From assembly GCF_055900595.2 (NCBI RefSeq), contig NZ_CM148325.1: a stretch of 64,000 nucleotides of DNA, one strand, 5' to 3'. Positions 1 to 44,826 of this stretch are shown one piece after another (the first letter of the stretch is position 1; every line of letters starts with the position of its first letter). The notes below the pieces were generated by a model, which did no database searches, had not been told where the DNA came from, and saw only the letters and a program-made list of their open reading frames with translations. A program made the translations under genes and the position numbers.

Positions 1-1
1 G

Positions 2-3000
2 GTTTACGTCAGTTGCCTGACGACGGCGAACAAACCTGCCAGCAGCATTACGCTGGATGTGGTTGATAACGCACAGTGGGCTGCCGGAAATAACGCGGCG
101 AAGCTGAAAAAAGGCGAAACGCTACAGGTTAAGGTAACGGTAAAAGATGCGCAGGGTAATCCGCTCACGGATATGCCATTTAAACTGAGTCGCGGAGACG
201 GTTATACCCGCACGGGCGAAAAACATATTGCCGGTAGTGGCGATGCGCTGGTGGCACCGGTGGTGATTAACAGTGGGCTGGCGGATGAAACGACGTTGAA
301 CGACACCGCGGGATTTTATACTGCCATGACCGGCAGCGACGGCAGCAAAATCCTCAATATTACCCGCCCGGATACTCACGGTACCAAAACGGCGCTGACG
401 GCGACGTTGTATTCCGATCCAACAAAAAAAGACAGCCTGGATACAATCTTTACTGTGGTCACCAGCCCGGATAGTAGCAAAGCGAAAATGTGGGGCCATA
501 TGCCGGAAACCTTAACGGCGGCAGATGGTACCGTTTTTAAACGCCCATTGCTGATAAAGGAACTGTCGAGTCAGACCGGGCGAACAGCAATATTCGAAGA
601 CAATGAAAACTGGGCGCTGTTTACTCAAACCCAGGCGAACTCAACCAGTAACGGCTGCGGCACTAGCTATGTTCCCACTCAGGCAGGGTTGTTGTCGTTG
701 TTTGATAATCACGCTGGCAATACCATCAAAACCGTCCAGGGCTGGCCGGTAGTAACGCGTTATTTATCCAGCACGCCCGACAACACTGGCATGGAACAGC
801 GTAACTACAAAGCGGTGGATCTCGGCAATGGCACCAGTGCCATGGTGTCAACGTCGACACTGGATCTACTGACCTGCCAAACCACGCCAGTCACCACGGT
901 GAGCCAGATTCTGCTGGAAGCGGCAGATCCTGCGGCTCTGATTTATGTTGACGATACACTGAGTGTGGTTAAAGCCAAAAAAGGCGAAGAGTCGGTAGTG
1001 CGCGTCACCACGAAAGATGCGCAAGGTAACCCGGTTGGCAATGCGGCGTTTATTCTGAAACGTGCCACCAGCATAAACCGGAGGTATACATCAGCGACAG
1101 CGAGTGTAGGTGCGCTGACTGTAACCGATGCCTGGGGAAATACGCGGAGTAATTTTCAGGCAACAACTGAAATGATCTATGGCGTGACGGGGGCTGACGG
1201 GTCGACAACCTTTACGCTGAAACAGGATAACAGTACCGGGTTAAGAACCGATCTCACGGCATCACTGGATGGCGTCAGCAGCGTTCAGGCGACCCTCCCG
1301 ATGGTCTTTACCGTGGTAACCAGTCCAGATTCTCCTAAAGCGAATTTTTGGGGACACATGCCTGAAACGGTAACGGCCGCTGATGGCATGACGTATAAGC
1401 GACCATTACTGTTTAAAGAACTTACCAATAACTATGCACGCTATAGCACTTTTGAGAATGGTGAAGATTGGGCAAGATTCAGTGTGGTTCAGTCAAATAA
1501 CACCGATATGGATGGATGCGGTGCAGAGTATATGCCGACACTGGATGGCCTGCAGTCCTTGTACAGTGCCAATAGTGGTAATGCGATGAGTACAGTGCAG
1601 GGATGGCCGGTAGCTAATAGTTATCTCACCAATACACCGAGTGATACGCAACCCAGTAACCGTTATTACAATGTGGTGCAACTGAATTCCGGCGCGGTTT
1701 CTCAAATCGTGACCACCGTGCTGGCATTACAAACTTGTCGCACAACGCCTGCGGTTATTGCCAGCCAGGTGTCTCTGGAGCCTGCGGACGCCACGCAATT
1801 CGTTAAGGTTGACGATACTCTGAGCGCCATTAAGGTGAAAAAAGGCGATGAGGTTGTTATTCGCGTCACGACCAAAGATGCGCAAGGAAACCCGGTGGGT
1901 AATACGCCGTTTACACTGAAGCGTAGCAGTTCTTTCAATCGCCAGAATGCATTAGTGACGATGCAGACGGTTTCGGTGACACCCGCAGCGGCCAGTACAG
2001 TTGATACCAATGCATCGGCCACCGTGTATGGCGTGACCGGGCCAGACGGAACCACCACGATGACACTCCGACAGGATGCGTCTACTGGACTCAAAACCGA
2101 CTTTTATGCTCTGTTGAACGATACCGGCGTGTCGTCGAACACCTTGCCAGTGATCTTCACCGTCGTCACCAGCCCGGATACACCGCTGGCGGCCAACTGG
2201 GGGCATATGGCGGAAACCTTTACCAGCAGCAAGGGCGTCACCTTCAAACGGCCTTTCCTCAAAGCTGAACTTTCTGGTGGTACGGCGGTAACGACCAATA
2301 ATGAAGTCTGGTCGCGCCTGACAGCAACGGAGAAAACGGATGCCAGCAAGGCGGGTTGTGATGAGAGTTATCAACCGCTGATGACTGACATGCAGGGGTT
2401 GTATGCGGATTACCCTAACAACCAGTTGGGCACGGTGCTCGGCTTGCCGACTTCCGCCGGGTATATGTGGGCCTACGACATGATGACGGTTTCTGGCAGC
2501 AGCTGGAGCAACCAGGCATATTCGCTCGTTAATGGTCAGACAGTTCAGGCATCGTCCAGTTATACGGCGGTAGTGATGTGCCTGGTGGAACCGCATACCG
2601 TTCCGGCGATGATAGAGATCACTTCAACAGCACAGGATGCGGCAAAAACGGTCAGCAATGGTGGTCGACCGAGCGCCGTAGCGAAGAAAGGTGAGACGAT
2701 TCCGCTGACGGTGACCGTACGTGATAGCACCGGGAATCCGGTACCCTACGCCGACTTTACCCTCACGCGTGGAACGACGCTGGATCGCTCGAAAGCAACC
2801 GTTAACTCGAGTGCGGACGATCTTACCGTGAAGTCATTGATACCCGCGAACAGCGACGCTGGGCTGACGGCAAATGGGGCAAAAGTGCTCAGAACAACGG
2901 GCAGTGATGGCACTGCCACCTTTGAAGTGAGCCAGAATGCCACGACAGGTCTGGCGACACCGATAACCGTCACGCTGGCGCGCGATACAACCAAAACCGC

Positions 3001-5131
3001 CACGCTGGATGTTATCTACACGGTGATAACCAGCCCGGACTCACCGAGCGCGAAATTCTGGGGACACATGCCGGACACCTTTACCAGTTCGGCAGGCGTC
3101 ACCTTCAGACGACCGCTCCTGAAAGCCGAAGCGACTTCAGGGTCATCGATTAGCACTAACGGTAATGGTGAAGTGTGGTCGTATATGAGCAACGTTCAAA
3201 ATTTAACATCGACAGATTGTCCGCTGGAGAATCAACCGCGCAGTAATGAATTGTTGGATTTGTATAATGATCATCCCAACGGCGCGATAATGACTGACCT
3301 GGGGCTGCCGATATATGCAGGCAAGTGGTGGGCTTATGATATGGTCATGCCGGATTTATATACGTGGCAGTATCAGACTGTCAGCCTGAGCGCAGGAGAT
3401 ATCGCGAAGAGCTCGGCAAACAACGCGCTGATGCTTTGCCTGGCGAAGCCGCATCCGGCAGGCGTCAGCGTAATGTTGACGTCATCCGCAATGGATAACG
3501 CCAGAACCCTCAGTAATGGCGGGCGACCCAGCGCGTCAGTGAAAAAAGGTAACCCACTGCCAATTGTGGTGACGGTCAAAGATCGTGATGGCAACCCGCT
3601 GGCGGGAGAGGCCGTGACGCTCAGGCGTGGTTCAGCGATGAGTCGTTCAGGAGCAGGAGTGGGCACGCCGGCAAATGCAATGACGTTGACAGAATTGACA
3701 CCTGTGTCGGCGGAGTTTTCTCTGGCCGCACACGATACGCAATGGCAAGGTTTCACCGGTAGTGATGGTACGGCCACTTTCAATGTTGAACAGCCTGAGA
3801 CCATCGGCCTGGCTATCTCGTTCACCGCTATACTGGCGCGAGATGTCGCAACTACCAGCGTCATTGATGCGATCTTTACCGTCGTCACCAGCCCGGATTC
3901 CGCAATGGCGACCTACTGGGGCCATATGCCGGATACGGTAACGGCGGAAAACGGCGTGGTCTTTGAACGGCCTAAATTGTTGAAAGAGCTGCCGTCGAGC
4001 GCCGGAGTCAGTCAGGTGACGGATAACAATGAAGTGTGGCCGTTGTTTAAGGCAACGCAAAGGGAAGATAGCAGCCTCAGTCCTTGTGAAGCGGCACGTC
4101 GGCCATTGAGCGATGATTTATTATCGCTCTACGCGCGCTATCCGGGGAACACGCTGACGACTCAAATCGGCTGGTCTACGAAGTATGCATGGTGGGCACT
4201 GGATAACAAGCAGGGGAATGCCCTGGTTGTCAGTCTGAATAATGGTTTTGAGTCGTCGACGGCGAGTACGGGGTATCAGGGATGTCTGGTCAATCCCCGC
4301 GCGACCGTCTCCAGCGTCACGCTGACATCGACGGCGATAGATGCCACTACGCAGGCGGCGAAGGTAAAAAAAGGTGAAGCCGCGCCCGTCGTTGTTACCG
4401 TAAAAGACAGCGCCGGGAAGCCGGTACCTAATGTCGCTTTCACCTTAAAACGTGGTGATGCCGTGCCGCGTAACAGCGGGGCGACGTTGTATGGTGATGT
4501 TGCGGCGATGGATGATATGACGGTACAACCTGCCAGCGGGACGGTGGTAACGCTGGCTGACAGTGGGAATACGATCGACGGTGTGACAGGGGCGGACGGT
4601 ACGGCAAGTTTTGCCGTTCGTCAGGATAATACGCCAGGATATAAAACGCCGTTGACGGTGACGCTGACGGATAACGCCACAATAACGGCGACGCTGGATA
4701 CGATTTTCACCGTGCCGACCAGCCCGAATGTCGCCACGGCGTATTTCTGGGGGCATATGGCGGATACCGCCACCGTAAGTGGCAAGACGTTACATCGCCC
4801 GCTATTGAAATCAGAGTTGCCGTCAGGGGCTACAGCGGCAGTAGCGCCAACGGTGAATAATGAAATCTGGGCGCTGGCACATGTGATCGATGCTCAAAAA
4901 TGGGATATTGCAAAGCAGTGCGGTGACTTTAGTAGAGCACCGAGCTATACCGATTTACAGTCATTGCATAGCGGTTTTAGCGCGCTGGGATGGCCATCAT
5001 CGATAAGCTTCCCCTATTTCTCTACCGATCGGGCCGGTTCGTTCTATTGTGGTATGGATGAAGGGGCGGGGACACAAAACTGCGGTATTCAGGCATCCAG
5101 TACCGCAGGGTTTGCGACTTGTTTCCAGTAG
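2..5131 (+). CDS. Giant repetitive Ig-like (BIG-domain) surface protein, RatA/RatB-like; 5' end lies outside the window
   Basis: Open frame continues to the window start (no in-frame stop upstream of the ORF-track Met at 59). Six tandem ~285-aa units each carry VKKGE..V.VT.KDAQGNP and FTVVTSPDSP..WGHMP.T motifs. Position beside xseA matches the rat/shd-type adhesin islet of enterobacteria (recalled). Confidence 0.6.
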   Translation, partial: VYVSCLTTANKPASSITLDVVDNAQWAAGNNAAKLKKGETLQVKVTVKDAQGNPLTDMPFKLSRGDGYTRTGEKHIAGSGDALVAPVVINSGLADETTLNDTAGFYTAMTGSDGSKILNITRPDTHGTKTALTATLYSDPTKKDSLDTIFTVVTSPDSSKAKMWGHMPETLTAADGTVFKRPLLIKELSSQTGRTAIFEDNENWALFTQTQANSTSNGCGTSYVPTQAGLLSLFDNHAGNTIKTVQGWPVVTRYLSSTPDNTGMEQRNYKAVDLGNGTSAMVSTSTLDLLTCQTTPVTTVSQILLEAADPAALIYVDDTLSVVKAKKGEESVVRVTTKDAQGNPVGNAAFILKRATSINRRYTSATASVGALTVTDAWGNTRSNFQATTEMIYGVTGADGSTTFTLKQDNSTGLRTDLTASLDGVSSVQATLPMVFTVVTSPDSPKANFWGHMPETVTAADGMTYKRPLLFKELTNNYARYSTFENGEDWARFSVVQSNNTDMDGCGAEYMPTLDGLQSLYSANSGNAMSTVQGWPVANSYLTNTPSDTQPSNRYYNVVQLNSGAVSQIVTTVLALQTCRTTPAVIASQVSLEPADATQFVKVDDTLSAIKVKKGDEVVIRVTTKDAQGNPVGNTPFTLKRSSSFNRQNALVTMQTVSVTPAAASTVDTNASATVYGVTGPDGTTTMTLRQDASTGLKTDFYALLNDTGVSSNTLPVIFTVVTSPDTPLAANWGHMAETFTSSKGVTFKRPFLKAELSGGTAVTTNNEVWSRLTATEKTDASKAGCDESYQPLMTDMQGLYADYPNNQLGTVLGLPTSAGYMWAYDMMTVSGSSWSNQAYSLVNGQTVQASSSYTAVVMCLVEPHTVPAMIEITSTAQDAAKTVSNGGRPSAVAKKGETIPLTVTVRDSTGNPVPYADFTLTRGTTLDRSKATVNSSADDLTVKSLIPANSDAGLTANGAKVLRTTGSDGTATFEVSQNATTGLATPITVTLARDTTKTATLDVIYTVITSPDSPSAKFWGHMPDTFTSSAGVTFRRPLLKAEATSGSSISTNGNGEVWSYMSNVQNLTSTDCPLENQPRSNELLDLYNDHPNGAIMTDLGLPIYAGKWWAYDMVMPDLYTWQYQTVSLSAGDIAKSSANNALMLCLAKPHPAGVSVMLTSSAMDNARTLSNGGRPSASVKKGNPLPIVVTVKDRDGNPLAGEAVTLRRGSAMSRSGAGVGTPANAMTLTELTPVSAEFSLAAHDTQWQGFTGSDGTATFNVEQPETIGLAISFTAILARDVATTSVIDAIFTVVTSPDSAMATYWGHMPDTVTAENGVVFERPKLLKELPSSAGVSQVTDNNEVWPLFKATQREDSSLSPCEAARRPLSDDLLSLYARYPGNTLTTQIGWSTKYAWWALDNKQGNALVVSLNNGFESSTASTGYQGCLVNPRATVSSVTLTSTAIDATTQAAKVKKGEAAPVVVTVKDSAGKPVPNVAFTLKRGDAVPRNSGATLYGDVAAMDDMTVQPASGTVVTLADSGNTIDGVTGADGTASFAVRQDNTPGYKTPLTVTLTDNATITATLDTIFTVPTSPNVATAYFWGHMADTATVSGKTLHRPLLKSELPSGATAAVAPTVNNEIWALAHVIDAQKWDIAKQCGDFSRAPSYTDLQSLHSGFSALGWPSSISFPYFSTDRAGSFYCGMDEGAGTQNCGIQASSTAGFATCFQ
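440..5000 (+). repeat. Six tandem ~855-bp coding repeats inside the RatA-like gene
   Basis: The accagcccgg / ccagtccagat core of the TSPDSP motif recurs at about 461, 1321, 2170, 3031, 3890 and 4721, giving a period of roughly 830-860 bp. Confidence 0.7.
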
Positions 5132-5178
5132 TCTTATCGGGTCTGTAAGCGGGGGAAAGTCTGGTACGCAATACGTCT

Positions 5179-6576
<1,398 letters not shown>

Positions 6577-6619
6577 TTATTCAGTCGATAGTAACCCGCC
6601 CTCCGGGGATAGCAAGCAT

Positions 6620-6670
6620 TTTTTGCAAAAAGGGGTAGATGCAATCGGTTACGCTCTGTATAATGCCGCG
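6620..6670 (+). promoter_or_regulatory. Putative guaBA promoter region (-10-like TATAAT at 6659-6664)
   Basis: TATAAT hexamer about 44 bp upstream of the conserved guaB start, within the xseA-guaB divergent intergenic region; -35 not confidently assigned. Confidence 0.35.
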
Positions 6671-6707
6671 GCAATATTTATTAACCACTCTGGTCGAGAT
6701 ATTGCCC

Positions 6708-8174
6708 ATGCTACGTATCGCTAAAGAAGCTCTGACGTTTGACGACGTTCTCCTCGTTCCTGCACATTCTACCGTTCTGCCGAATACCGCTGACCTCAGC
6801 ACCCAGCTGACAAAAACTATTCGTCTGAATATCCCTATGCTCTCCGCAGCAATGGATACCGTAACGGAAGCGCGCCTGGCTATCGCCCTGGCTCAGGAAG
6901 GCGGTATCGGCTTTATCCACAAAAACATGTCCATTGAACGCCAGGCTGAAGAAGTTCGCCGCGTGAAAAAACACGAATCTGGCGTGGTAACCGATCCGCA
7001 GACTGTTCTGCCAACCACGACGCTGCGCGAAGTGAAAGAGCTGACCGAGCGTAACGGTTTTGCAGGCTATCCGGTTGTGACCGAAGAAAACGAACTGGTC
7101 GGCATTATCACCGGTCGTGACGTGCGTTTTGTTACCGATCTGAACCAGCCGGTTAGCGTTTACATGACGCCGAAAGAGCGTCTGGTAACCGTGCGTGAAG
7201 GCGAAGCCCGTGAAGTGGTGCTGGCAAAAATGCACGAAAAACGCGTTGAAAAAGCGCTGGTGGTTGATGATGAATTCCACCTGATCGGCATGATCACTGT
7301 GAAGGACTTCCAGAAAGCGGAACGTAAACCGAACGCCTGTAAAGACGAACAAGGCCGTCTGCGTGTAGGTGCAGCGGTTGGCGCAGGTGCGGGTAACGAA
7401 GAGCGTGTTGATGCGCTGGTTGCCGCAGGCGTTGACGTTCTGCTGATCGACTCCTCTCACGGTCACTCTGAAGGCGTTCTGCAGCGTATCCGTGAAACTC
7501 GCGCTAAATATCCTGACCTGCAAATCATCGGCGGCAACGTGGCAACAGCTGCAGGTGCCCGCGCGCTGGCAGAAGCCGGTTGCAGTGCCGTTAAAGTGGG
7601 TATCGGCCCAGGTTCTATTTGTACTACCCGCATTGTTACTGGCGTCGGTGTACCGCAGATCACTGCCGTTGCTGACGCAGTAGAAGCCCTGGAAGGCACC
7701 GGGATTCCGGTTATCGCTGACGGTGGTATTCGTTTCTCTGGCGATATCGCGAAAGCTATCGCTGCTGGTGCAAGCGCGGTGATGGTAGGCTCCATGCTGG
7801 CAGGTACGGAAGAATCCCCGGGTGAAATCGAACTCTACCAGGGCCGTTCTTACAAGTCTTACCGTGGGATGGGCTCTCTGGGCGCGATGTCCAAAGGTTC
7901 TTCTGACCGTTACTTCCAGAGCGACAACGCTGCCGACAAACTGGTGCCGGAAGGTATCGAAGGTCGCGTAGCCTATAAAGGTCGCCTGAAAGAGATCATT
8001 CACCAGCAGATGGGCGGCCTGCGCTCCTGTATGGGCCTGACCGGCTGTGGTACTATCGACGAACTGCGTACTAAAGCGGAGTTTGTACGTATCAGCGGTG
8101 CGGGCATTCAGGAAAGCCACGTTCACGACGTGACCATTACTAAAGAGTCCCCGAACTACCGTCTGGGCTCCTGA
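6708..8174 (+). CDS. guaB: IMP dehydrogenase
   Basis: Conserved N-terminus [25 protein letters not shown] begins at the in-frame ATG at 6708 (ORF track extends to 6639); CBS and IMPDH catalytic regions present ([11 protein letters not shown]). Confidence 0.95.
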
Positions 8175-8181
8175 TTCTCTT

Positions 8182-8202
8182 CGCCCGACTTCATGTCGGG
8201 CG
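8182..8202 (+). other. Stem-loop in the guaB-guaA intergenic region
   Basis: Inverted repeat cgcccgac-ttcat-gtcgggcg followed by an AT-rich run; possible intra-operon attenuator or processing site. Confidence 0.3.
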
Positions 8203-8242
8203 ATTTATATTATCTGTTTCACTTGCCTCGGAATAAGCGTCA

Positions 8243-9820
8243 ATGACGGAAAACATTCATAAGCATCGCATCCTCATTCTGGACTTCGGTTCTCAGTACA
8301 CCCAACTGGTTGCGCGCCGCGTGCGTGAACTGGGTGTTTACTGCGAACTGTGGGCGTGGGATGTGACAGAAGCACAAATTCGTGACTTCAATCCAAGCGG
8401 CATTATTCTTTCCGGCGGCCCGGAAAGCACCACCGAAGAAAACAGCCCGCGTGCGCCGCAGTATGTCTTTGAAGCAGGCGTACCGGTATTCGGCGTTTGC
8501 TATGGTATGCAGACCATGGCAATGCAGTTGGGTGGTCATGTTGAAGCCTCTAACGAACGTGAATTTGGCTATGCGCAGGTTGAAGTCGTAAACGACAGCG
8601 CACTGGTTCGCGGTATCGAAGATGCGCTGACAGCAGACGGTAAACCTCTGCTCGATGTCTGGATGAGCCATGGCGATAAAGTTACCGCTATCCCGTCCGA
8701 CTTCATCACCGTAGCCAGCACCGAAAGCTGCCCGTTCGCCATCATGGCAAATGAAGAAAAACGCTTCTATGGCGTACAGTTCCACCCGGAAGTGACTCAT
8801 ACCCGCCAGGGGATGCGCATGCTGGAGCGTTTTGTGCGTGATATCTGCCAGTGTGAAGCCCTGTGGACGCCAGCGAAAATTATCGACGATGCAGTAGCCC
8901 GTATCCGCGAGCAGGTAGGCGACGATAAAGTGATCCTCGGCCTCTCTGGTGGCGTGGATTCCTCCGTGACTGCAATGCTGCTGCACCGCGCAATCGGCAA
9001 AAACCTGACTTGCGTATTCGTTGACAACGGCCTGCTGCGTCTCAACGAAGCAGAGCAGGTTCTGGATATGTTTGGCGATCACTTTGGTCTGAACATTGTT
9101 CACGTTCCGGCAGAAGATCGCTTCTTGTCAGCGCTGGCTGGTGAAAACGATCCGGAAGCAAAACGTAAAATCATCGGTCGCGTTTTCGTTGAAGTATTCG
9201 ATGAAGAAGCGCTGAAACTGGAAGATGTGAAGTGGCTGGCGCAGGGTACTATCTACCCTGATGTTATCGAATCTGCCGCGTCTGCAACCGGTAAAGCTCA
9301 CGTCATCAAATCTCACCATAACGTGGGCGGCCTGCCGAAAGAGATGAAGATGGGCCTGGTTGAACCGCTGAAAGAGCTGTTCAAAGACGAAGTGCGTAAA
9401 ATTGGTCTGGAGCTGGGCCTGCCGTACGACATGCTGTACCGTCACCCGTTCCCGGGACCAGGCCTTGGCGTTCGTGTGCTGGGCGAAGTGAAGAAAGAGT
9501 ACTGCGACCTGCTGCGCCGTGCTGATGCCATCTTCATTGAAGAACTGCGTAAAGCGGACCTGTACGACAAAGTTAGCCAGGCGTTTACCGTGTTCCTGCC
9601 GGTACGTTCTGTTGGCGTAATGGGCGATGGTCGTAAATACGACTGGGTTGTGTCTCTGCGTGCCGTCGAAACCATCGACTTTATGACCGCACACTGGGCG
9701 CATCTGCCGTACGATTTCCTTGGTCGCGTTTCCAACCGCATTATCAATGAAGTGAACGGTATTTCCCGCGTGGTGTATGACATCAGCGGCAAGCCACCGG
9801 CGACTATTGAGTGGGAATGA
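8243..9820 (+). CDS. guaA: GMP synthase (glutamine-hydrolysing)
   Basis: 525-aa [43 protein letters not shown] ... PPATIEWE; class I glutamine amidotransferase plus ATP-pyrophosphatase regions. Confidence 0.95.
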
Positions 9821-9822
9821 TT
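9809..9822. repeat. attL core (direct repeat GAGTGGGAATGATT overlapping the guaA stop codon)
   Basis: Exact 14-bp copy also at 44813-44826; the left copy supplies the last guaA codons and TGA stop. Confidence 0.55.
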
Positions 9823-9866
9823 CGTTAACGCTTTTCTGCGATTAACACCCATCGAAAATAATACTA

Positions 9867-9895
9867 ACCGCCTTGATTTACAGGCGGTTTTTTTA
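9867..9895 (+). terminator. Rho-independent terminator downstream of guaA (prophage-supplied)
   Basis: Hairpin accgcc-ttgatttac-aggcggt followed by a run of Ts. Confidence 0.6.
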
Positions 9896-9938
9896 TTTTC
9901 AGTCATTAATAACCATCAGTTACTATCTGTTGTTTTTA

Positions 9939-10026
9939 GCGGTAAATTTGACGGTATAAGAAATTTTTAGTCAGTGTTACACTCCATTTTACCGTCAGGT
10001 TTTAGCCAGCGGTGACGGTAAAATTT
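9939..10026. promoter_or_regulatory. Cluster of GACGGTA(A/T)A motifs: putative integrase arm-type binding sites
   Basis: gcggtaaa 9939-9946, gacggtata 9950-9958, inverted tttaccgtc 9988-9996, gacggtaaa 10014-10022, immediately upstream of int; the same motif occurs twice in the right arm (44730-44750). Confidence 0.4.
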
Positions 10027-10030
10027 CACA

Positions 10031-11245
10031 ATGGAGAGTGACCCGATGCTGACCGATACCAAACTGAAAAACCTCAAAGCGCGGGAAAAACTTTATAAAG
10101 TTGCAGACCGTGATGGGCTGTATGTAACCGTATCTCCCAAGGGATTGGTGACGTTTCGCTATGACTATCGAATCAATGGTCGTCGTGAAACGTTAACTAT
10201 TGGTCGCTATGGTGACGGTATTTCTCTGGCGCAGGCGCGCGAAAAATTAGTGGAAGCCAAAAAACGCGTAAATGCAGGAATATCGCCCGCTGGAGAGAAG
10301 CGTGACGGTAAAACAAAGCGAAAAGAAGAAAAGACACTCCACGATTTTACCGTCAGCTACATGAAACACACCCGGCTGGCGGACAGCACAAGGGCGATGA
10401 AGCAAAGCATTATCGACAGAGACATCACGCCAGTATGGGGGCGCAAGCTGCTGTCAGAGATAACCCCCTCTCTCCTACGTGAGTATTGCGACAAGATAAA
10501 AGCGCGTGGTGCGCCAGCGACGGCGATTCAGGTTCGCAATATCGTTAGTGCGGTATTTAAGTTCGCCGCGCTTCACGGCGACTATTACCCCAATCCTGCC
10601 GAAGAGGTTTTACCGGCTTCAATTGCGACATTCGAAGCGCGCGACAGGGCGCTCAAGCCAGAGGAGATAGGCTGGTTTTTCAATCAGCTTGAACAAACGG
10701 GTACATTACCCACCATCAAGCTGGCCATTAAATTGGTTTTATTAACGATGGTACGTAAAAGTGAACTGCTGAACGCTCCGTGGGGTGAGGTTAATTTTAA
10801 TGCCTGCCTTTGGACGATTGACGCCAGCCGGATGAAGGGATCACGGGATCATAATGTTTATCTGTCCCGGCAGGCACAGGACATTCTGATTGCCCTGAAA
10901 ATGTGCGCAGGAAGCAGTGATTGGGTTTTGCCTTCATGCAATCAGTCGTCGCATAAGACCATGTCGGCGGCGACCTTAAACCGGGTCATTAATCTTACGG
11001 TTAAGCAGGCGCAGGAACGGGGGATCAGGCTGGCGTCGTTTTCCGTTCACGATATGCGCCGAACGGCATCGACGTTATTGCATGAGGCGGGGTTTAATTC
11101 CGACTGGATAGAAAAATGCCTCGCGCACGAGGAAAGAAGCGTCAGAGCCGTTTATAACAAAGCGGAATACGCAGAGCAGCGCCGTGATATGTTGCAGCAG
11201 TGGGCGGATATGGTTGATGGGTGGATCAAGCAATACCGCCCGTAA
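10031..11245 (+). CDS. int: Tyrosine recombinase, P4-type phage integrase
   Basis: N-terminal arm-binding region DGLYVTVSPKGLVTFRYDYRINGRRETLTIGRYG and C-terminal catalytic HDMRRT ... AVYNKAEY (HxxR ... Y) typical of P4/CP4-57 integrases; true start may be the Met at about 10046. Confidence 0.9.
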   Translation: MESDPMLTDTKLKNLKAREKLYKVADRDGLYVTVSPKGLVTFRYDYRINGRRETLTIGRYGDGISLAQAREKLVEAKKRVNAGISPAGEKRDGKTKRKEEKTLHDFTVSYMKHTRLADSTRAMKQSIIDRDITPVWGRKLLSEITPSLLREYCDKIKARGAPATAIQVRNIVSAVFKFAALHGDYYPNPAEEVLPASIATFEARDRALKPEEIGWFFNQLEQTGTLPTIKLAIKLVLLTMVRKSELLNAPWGEVNFNACLWTIDASRMKGSRDHNVYLSRQAQDILIALKMCAGSSDWVLPSCNQSSHKTMSAATLNRVINLTVKQAQERGIRLASFSVHDMRRTASTLLHEAGFNSDWIEKCLAHEERSVRAVYNKAEYAEQRRDMLQQWADMVDGWIKQYRP

Positions 11246-44812: not shown

Positions 44813-44826
44813 GAGTGGGAATGATT
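44813..44826. repeat. attR core (direct repeat GAGTGGGAATGATT)
   Basis: Exact copy of 9809-9822; followed by what looks like the displaced native guaA terminator. Confidence 0.55.

Follow-up and report, generated by a model that had tools for sequence, protein, structure and literature searches.

The E. coli gene family treated here, its island and its domain families have already been named in RefSeq, Pfam, NCBIfam and the literature on UPEC and APEC. Between yfgJ and xseA lies the sinH-sinI-ratA island ('ila', CS54-like), a horizontal acquisition whose third gene encodes the E. coli 'RatA-like protein' (NF011844 / PRK15316). This cluster has been described at the xseA..yfgJ site of APEC and UPEC (PMC12928451), STEC O117 has been reported to carry a CS54-related ratA-sivI-sivH island of 10 kb (PMC3739510), and iatB of strain SMS-3-5 is an orthologue of sinH (PMC6714894). 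Deletion of cluster genes is reported in PMC12928451, citing Shea 2022, to attenuate UPEC in a mouse model of UTI. In Salmonella, RatA and RatB are encoded in the CS54 island, and the Zir system follows an operon logic in which ZirT, a barrel protein whose passenger is short, precedes barrel-less, signal-peptide-bearing Ig-domain proteins (ZirS and ZirU); its likeness to the sin-rat loci has been pointed out before (PMC4943183, PMC6714894). Inverse autotransporters of the InvE type have an N-terminal barrel of their own and carry a single tip unit.

The stretch of DNA analysed here (the window; 64,000 nt of contig NZ_CM148325.1, assembly GCF_055900595.2) opens within such a gene. On the plus strand, the 3′ part of a RatA-like adhesin gene occupies 2..5131, with 1,709 codons free of stops from nt 2, at the window edge, to the stop codon at 5129-5131; the frame runs off the 5′ edge and the gene starts upstream of the window. 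The mechanical open reading frame within it (59-5131) gives 1,690 aa, which agrees with the minimum length given in the initial annotation. Among complete E. coli genomes, 2013C-4282 best matches the opening 8 kb of the window (97%); in that strain, the gene spans 8,088 nt and encodes a 2,695-aa protein annotated as 'adhesion domain-containing protein' (WP_074500908.1). Residues 987-2695 of that protein align colinearly with the window protein at 97.1% amino acid identity, and the window contains the 3′ 63% of the gene, that is, residues ~987-2695 of a protein of ~2,695 aa, plus the stop codon. Identity is 79.1% to the SMS-3-5 protein and 60.4% to that of UTI89 (B2 type). The protein covers positions 982-2683 of the NF011844 model (2,683 positions) without a break and scores 3,210.5 bits, short of the 3,870-bit cut-off since the window contains no more than 63% of its length; the full-length, 97.1%-identical protein scores 5,405.7 bits.

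The gene ends 47 nt from xseA (5179..6546, minus strand), a conserved flank of the island identified by a Pfam match to Exonuc_VII_L (E 1e-114) and by the annotation of homologous loci, and guaB and guaA come after xseA. The spacer between the convergent stops (5132..5178) forms the right-hand boundary of the island. A terminator search found no convincing terminator in this spacer and none above chance; the sole terminator-like match nearby (5104-5116) is within the coding sequence and at chance level. In MG1655, xseA abuts yfgJ with nothing between them, and the site is indeed empty in K-12, as the initial annotation had it. The other main elements of the initial annotation at this locus, a giant RatA-like repeat adhesin beside xseA with its 5′ end beyond the window, likewise hold: the 'RatA-like protein' model NF011844 aligns end to end with the window protein, and the full-length, 97%-identical homologue of 2,695 aa has nine units. 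The gene order in 2013C-4282 is der - yfgJ - sinH - sinI-family - adhesin - xseA - guaB, and SMS-3-5 (2,691 aa) and UTI89 (2,683 aa) keep the order der-yfgJ-sinH-sinI-adhesin-xseA-guaB. For the window strain, sinI, sinH and the 5′ part of the gene lie outside the window, and the 97%-identical locus is the basis for assuming that they are present and intact.

Within the window, the protein consists of six units, which are units 4 to 9 of the nine in the full protein. Unit 1 of the window (unit 4/9; 32..892) was placed from a unit HMM envelope (residues 11-297) and Pfam, and is followed on the same plus strand by unit 2 (5/9; 893..1753), unit 3 (6/9; 1754..2596), unit 4 (7/9; 2597..3454), unit 5 (8/9; 3455..4300) and unit 6 (9/9; 4301..5128), the C-terminal tip, which ends the protein without a C-terminal barrel. 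Six BIg21 domains (PF05688, E 6e-132) alternate strictly with six InvE_AD 'adhesion domains' (PF05689, E 8e-192), and no further significant Pfam family was found in the window protein; the full-length homologues have nine of each. In each module of ~285 residues, an Ig-like domain (BIg21) thus precedes an adhesion domain that is C-type-lectin-like and contains a disulphide. Modelled with AlphaFold2 (mean pLDDT 82.7; input, an alignment of 18 diverged units), unit 2 shows a beta-sandwich and then an alpha/beta domain, the adhesion domain corresponding to about nt 1325-1738. All 18 units share two invariant cysteines with a separation of ~73 residues, a pair that matches the disulphide found in the tip domains of invasin and intimin. 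Four cysteines, as opposed to the usual two, occur in the last unit (nt 4301-5128). The alignment of the units has no conserved stretch of 7-10 columns.

The initial annotation had described these units as six near-identical repeats of ~855 bp. Their coordinates, number and period stand, well above anything chance would give: a conserved 77-nt block occurs six times at spacings of 858, 849, 861, 858 and 831 nt, and unit starts lie 831-861 nt apart. Their near-identity, in contrast, is refuted. With the six units aligned and codon-threaded, whole-unit pairwise identity is 32-42% for protein and 44-51% for DNA, and even the 77-nt block, the best conserved part, shares merely 62-77% identity between copies. 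The longest exact word common to any two units is 9-18 nt, and Tandem Repeats Finder reported nothing on positions 1-9000.

Compared with the described systems, the locus is closest to the E. coli RatA-like protein itself, with the same location and nine-unit architecture, colinearity over the whole window and nothing essential different. Salmonella RatA and RatB share its domain pair (DUF823/DUF824, that is, BIg21 and InvE_AD) and its N-terminal domain, and the CS54 island has the same sinI/sinH and xseA neighbourhood. However, the model lengths of the Salmonella proteins imply fewer units, and the E. coli island lacks the ratB and shdA of CS54. Comparison with Salmonella was made through NCBIfam protein models, and the protein homologue search returned fragments of up to 502 aa only, with no full-length or named Salmonella proteins. 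Against the RatA model (NF011843, 1,860 positions, cut-off 3,700), the window protein scores 1,113 and the full-length homologue 2,010; against the RatB model (NF011842, 2,435 positions, cut-off 4,079), the scores are 1,389 and 2,295. All of these are below the cut-offs, and the protein is therefore the E. coli member of the Rat family and the equivalog of neither Salmonella gene.

Likeness to the remaining systems is confined to parts of the protein or to the logic of the locus. InvE of Yersinia pseudotuberculosis (PDB 5n40) is an inverse autotransporter that ends in the same two-domain tip as a RatA-like unit, but the window protein has a tandem array (nine units in full) and no barrel where InvE-type proteins have a barrel and one unit. 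The RatA-like unit also resembles the tips with which intimin and invasin bind their receptors; unlike those proteins, the RatA-like protein has neither barrel nor LysM, carries the lectin-like domain in every unit rather than once, and has no known binding to Tir or integrin. The operon logic is that of ZirT/ZirS/ZirU, although the RatA-like cargo is ten times larger and contains lectin-like domains, and its export, like that of SinI, through or with SinH is putative.

The N terminus of the protein is accessible through full-length homologues. A conserved N-domain preceded by a Sec-type signal-peptide-like sequence (for example, MSVCLKPGKIIMLLGMLAAFMLSDFARA followed by GAEW) was present in 17 of the 17 full-length genes examined, and an AlphaFold2 model of the N terminus shows a helix at residues 7-26 and then a disordered linker. 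None of three full-length homologues from E. coli has the inverse-autotransporter beta-barrel (PF11924), and no C-terminal autotransporter barrel (type Va) appeared in the Pfam output, the C terminus in the window being an adhesion domain. Upstream, SinH does have an inverse-autotransporter barrel (PF11924), and SinI, which has no barrel, is paralogous to the SinH C terminus and weakly matches the ZirU family (E 2.4e-6). Stops or frameshifts, or a missing signal peptide or autotransporter region, had been named as features that would speak against an adhesin. The 1,709 codons are uninterrupted and the full-length homologues carry a Sec signal, but there is no barrel; Rat-family proteins normally lack one, and its absence is therefore not evidence against an adhesin.

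Gene order and the fusion pattern of barrels and units were surveyed across species by scanning 100,044 species-representative genomes for a strict, degenerate DNA motif, a survey that is biased to close relatives and not exhaustive. The scan returned 99 stretches, nearly all from Enterobacterales, and no Salmonella locus. The sinI gene lies directly upstream of the Rat-like N-domain in all 14 loci from other genomes that extend upstream of that domain, sinH precedes sinI in all 9 that reach that far, and this sinH-sinI-rat order spans at least five genera; xseA is downstream in 18 loci. Twenty-six open reading frames combine an inverse-autotransporter barrel with exactly one unit, always at the extreme C terminus; these are InvE-type proteins of Xenorhabdus, Yersinia, Pantoea and Kosakonia. 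Among the surveyed loci, none joins a barrel to two or more units in one frame, and all 33 pieces of open reading frame with at least two units lack a barrel. The window protein has the form of a passenger, with Ig-like domains and a lectin-like adhesion domain as its end, and the homologous loci place a barrel-less signal-peptide protein downstream of an inverse-autotransporter barrel gene, as is the case for ZirS/ZirU-like cargo.

SinI and Rat-like proteins also have a motif in common, LKxGxWQ-x4-STGxIxGTxP, located in the mature N terminus just past the signal peptide. Comparison of the SinI and Rat-like profiles with hhalign gave a probability of 95% (E 4e-8) over 52 columns, signal peptides included; pairwise BLASTP between SinI and the Rat N-domain was non-significant (E 0.13), the profile comparison alone being significant. 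As a regular expression, the motif matched 22 times in the 1.9 million six-frame residues of the collected loci (9 in SinI, 13 in Rat-like proteins), always at residue 37-52 of a SinI or Rat-like frame, compared with 0-1 matches in shuffled sequence. The pattern was tuned partly on the same families, making the count of 22 of 22 a description and not a test. SinH does not have the motif. Such a tag on two barrel-less proteins is what one would expect if they shared a step of export or docking, and the motif is a small new clue, albeit one that lies outside the window.

Our preferred reading, which we consider probable, is that the window encodes six modules, the C-terminal ones, of a nine-module RatA-like protein that is Sec-exported, assisted by SinH and displayed as a multivalent surface adhesin with a stable array. 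Judging from the full-length homologues, the protein would be made with a Sec signal peptide, and it has no outer-membrane barrel of its own. Most likely, the co-encoded SinH barrel, together with SinI, would carry it to the surface as a two-partner system resembling ZirT/ZirS, with SinH as the translocator and the tandem arrays displayed through the type-Ve pathway in trans. At the surface, it may serve as a long, multivalent adhesin that binds host structures or glycans. We know of no experiment showing that a RatA-like protein is surface-exposed or depends on SinH, and the arguments from synteny and fusion pattern for SinH-dependent export are circumstantial. That SinH has such substrates, by analogy with ZirT/ZirS/ZirU, was hypothesized by Heinz et al. 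2016 (PMC4943183). We would go one step further only tentatively, to a type-Ve two-partner system of SinH, SinI and the RatA-like protein that operates through recognition of the motif, in which the nine lectin-like tips act multivalently and alleles older than the species are kept or exchanged as variants of antigenicity or receptor specificity.

Release or surface display of the RatA-like protein could instead follow a different route, for instance a type II secretion system, with SinH and SinI being independent adhesins that merely share the island. There are precedents on this side: InvL of Acinetobacter, a barrel-less, Sec-dependent, invasin-like adhesin, is secreted by a type II system, according to PMC9245377, and IatB/SinH mediates biofilm formation by itself (Goh 2019; PMC6714894), which counts against a partner model. 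A separate route is nevertheless hard to square with the strict sinH-sinI-rat order (14 of 14 and 9 of 9 loci in at least five genera), with the motif that SinI and Rat-like proteins share after their signal peptides, and with a pattern in which tandem arrays are never fused to a barrel and single units always are. We therefore regard it as unlikely.

To place the window allele among those of E. coli, we compared it with 5,426 complete genomes. A detectable copy of the gene is present in ~31% (1,686) and absent from ~69%, and in 752 the match to the opening 8 kb of the window covers 80% or more of that length. Nucleotide identity to the window allele is at least 90% in 18 genomes, 80-90% in 743 and 60-80% in 925; sampled matches in the last band (for example, UTI89) align over the first ~1,370 nt only, at ~73-74%. 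The window allele is thus a rare but annotated variant, at 18 of 5,426 genomes with at least 90% identity. The window allele is separated from that of UTI89 by a synonymous divergence (dS) of ~1.9, compared with 0.16-0.21 for guaB and guaA and an intermediate 0.5 for xseA, and on this measure the alleles appear far older than the E. coli core genome. Such an age is consistent with recombinational import or a long-maintained polymorphism rather than with recent diversification.

Three allele comparisons gave dN/dS values of 0.16-0.20, and the gene is therefore constrained. The same values led us to reject positive selection, at the level of the gene, as the cause of allele divergence. They also bear on whether the gene is a decaying or non-functional remnant of an acquired island that has no current role, an idea encouraged by the absence of the island from ~69% of complete E. 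coli genomes, by the existence of frameshifted and deleted versions elsewhere and by the fact that the 5′ end of the gene in the window strain is unseen. The low dN/dS, although obtained at dS values of up to 1.9, the 1,709 codons without a stop and the intact rat-like genes of 1,852-3,008 aa in 16 other genomes together make a remnant improbable.

The preferred reading of a maintained adhesin extends to the array itself, whose modules are ancient duplicates under purifying selection and which is genetically stable within E. coli. In every one of the three classes of E. coli allele (97%, 79% and 60% amino acid identity to the window), nine units lie in register, and in 18 sampled full-coverage E. 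coli matches the aligned span is within 12 nt of the query span. Recombination by RecA requires longer shared words than those found here. The words are too short for recombination and far below read length, and therefore neither unequal crossing-over nor collapse of the repeats is expected. The expansion, contraction and assembly errors anticipated in the initial annotation thus find no support, because the units are diverged and share words of at most 18 nt. A self-sufficient autotransporter-type adhesin whose near-identical repeats are a hotspot for copy-number change and mis-assembly might seem in keeping with the differing unit numbers of species, with damaged versions of the locus and with the many database entries that are fragments on short contigs, but it is very improbable given the divergence of the units, the silence of Tandem Repeats Finder, the register of nine across alleles, the absence of unit-sized length differences among sampled E. 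coli matches and the lack of a barrel at both ends.

For genome annotation, the locus is routine, being a known gene in a known island. The practical outcome is negative, as the repeats are too diverged for mis-assembly or frequent change in copy number, and for that reason the locus needs no special validation of its repeats. The question of wider interest lies at the level of the family, namely how a barrel-less adhesin of 2,700 residues crosses the outer membrane and what ligands its nine lectin-like domains have. Experiments on export could be guided by the rule that single units go with a barrel and arrays go without one, together with the SinI/Rat motif.

The number of units varies only between species; copy number has changed, but on the timescale of species. 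Damaged copies include a six-unit version, interrupted by two frameshifts, from an Escherichia assembly other than E. coli (L004) and a deletion that fuses a truncated sinH to two partial units (L005). Across intact genes of E. coli and other Enterobacterales, the number of units ranges from 6 to 10: Pseudocitrobacter faecalis, Superficieibacter sp., Citrobacter sp. MGH106 and Escherichia sp. MOD1 have six, three more genomes have seven, two more have eight, E. coli and C. gillenii have nine, and Leminorella has ten.

SinI and the Rat-like proteins, both of which are barrel-less proteins with a signal peptide, have a motif in common, LKxGxWQ-x4-STGxIxGTxP, which is conserved in the two alike and lies immediately past the signal peptide. 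Profile comparison of the SinI and Rat-like alignments with hhalign, signal peptides included, gave an E value of 4e-8 and a probability of 95%, and all 22 hits of the corresponding regular expression, which had been tuned on these families, were SinI or Rat-like proteins. The inverse-autotransporter protein SinH was without this motif. Upstream of the window, as represented by the homologous locus L001, the motif is found in L001:11942-12934 and L001:13044-13200, and further homologous loci with it were L003, L004, L009, L011, L021, L026, L031, L035, L038, L044, L060, L062, L064, L087 and L090.

Residues 19-22 of the SinI homologues (alignment A3, for example L001:11942-12934) are an invariant A-G-Y-C within the apparent signal peptide. 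This sequence differs from a canonical lipobox, and its cysteine is the only one in SinI. The Rat N-domain likewise has one invariant cysteine, C143. These single cysteines could possibly provide a lipid anchor or an intermolecular disulphide.

Leminorella grimontii (L060-L062) encodes two Rat-like genes in tandem, the first of 3008 aa with ten units (each a BIg21 plus InvE_AD module) and the second of 749 aa with two units; both come with an N-domain and a motif of their own. Such an arrangement is reminiscent of the Salmonella ratA-ratB pair. We also found a natural deletion form of the sinH-sinI-ratA island (L005, Logan ERR769194 contig, 8113-11128), in which a 631-aa truncated sinH leads into a 375-aa remnant consisting of two partial adhesin units, sinI having been lost together with most of the adhesin gene; from xseA to guaA, this contig is about 97% identical to the window. 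A 3.1-kb contig labelled as a metagenome-assembled genome of the actinobacterium Collinsella sp. (L050) harbours sinH and sinI together with the 5' part of ratA, at 65-71% amino-acid identity to E. coli; it is almost certainly enterobacterial DNA that was mis-binned.

Between strains bearing different adhesin alleles, xseA (5179-6546) is unusually diverged, with a dS of 0.45-0.50 compared with 0.15-0.21 for guaB and guaA (6639-9820). It looks as if recombination has dragged xseA along together with the alleles of the adjoining island.

Relative to E. coli 2013C-4282, which carries a full-length adhesin homologue, a P2-like prophage of ~35 kb (9823-44809) is inserted directly after the guaA stop codon. 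It includes an integrase gene (10031-11245) and genes for primase, tape measure, tail fibre, major head, terminase and portal proteins. On either side of the prophage lies a copy of a 14-nt direct repeat, GAGTGGGAATGATT (9808-9821 and 44813-44826). Among 5426 complete E. coli genomes, only 5 had a match to the 30-38 kb stretch of this prophage.
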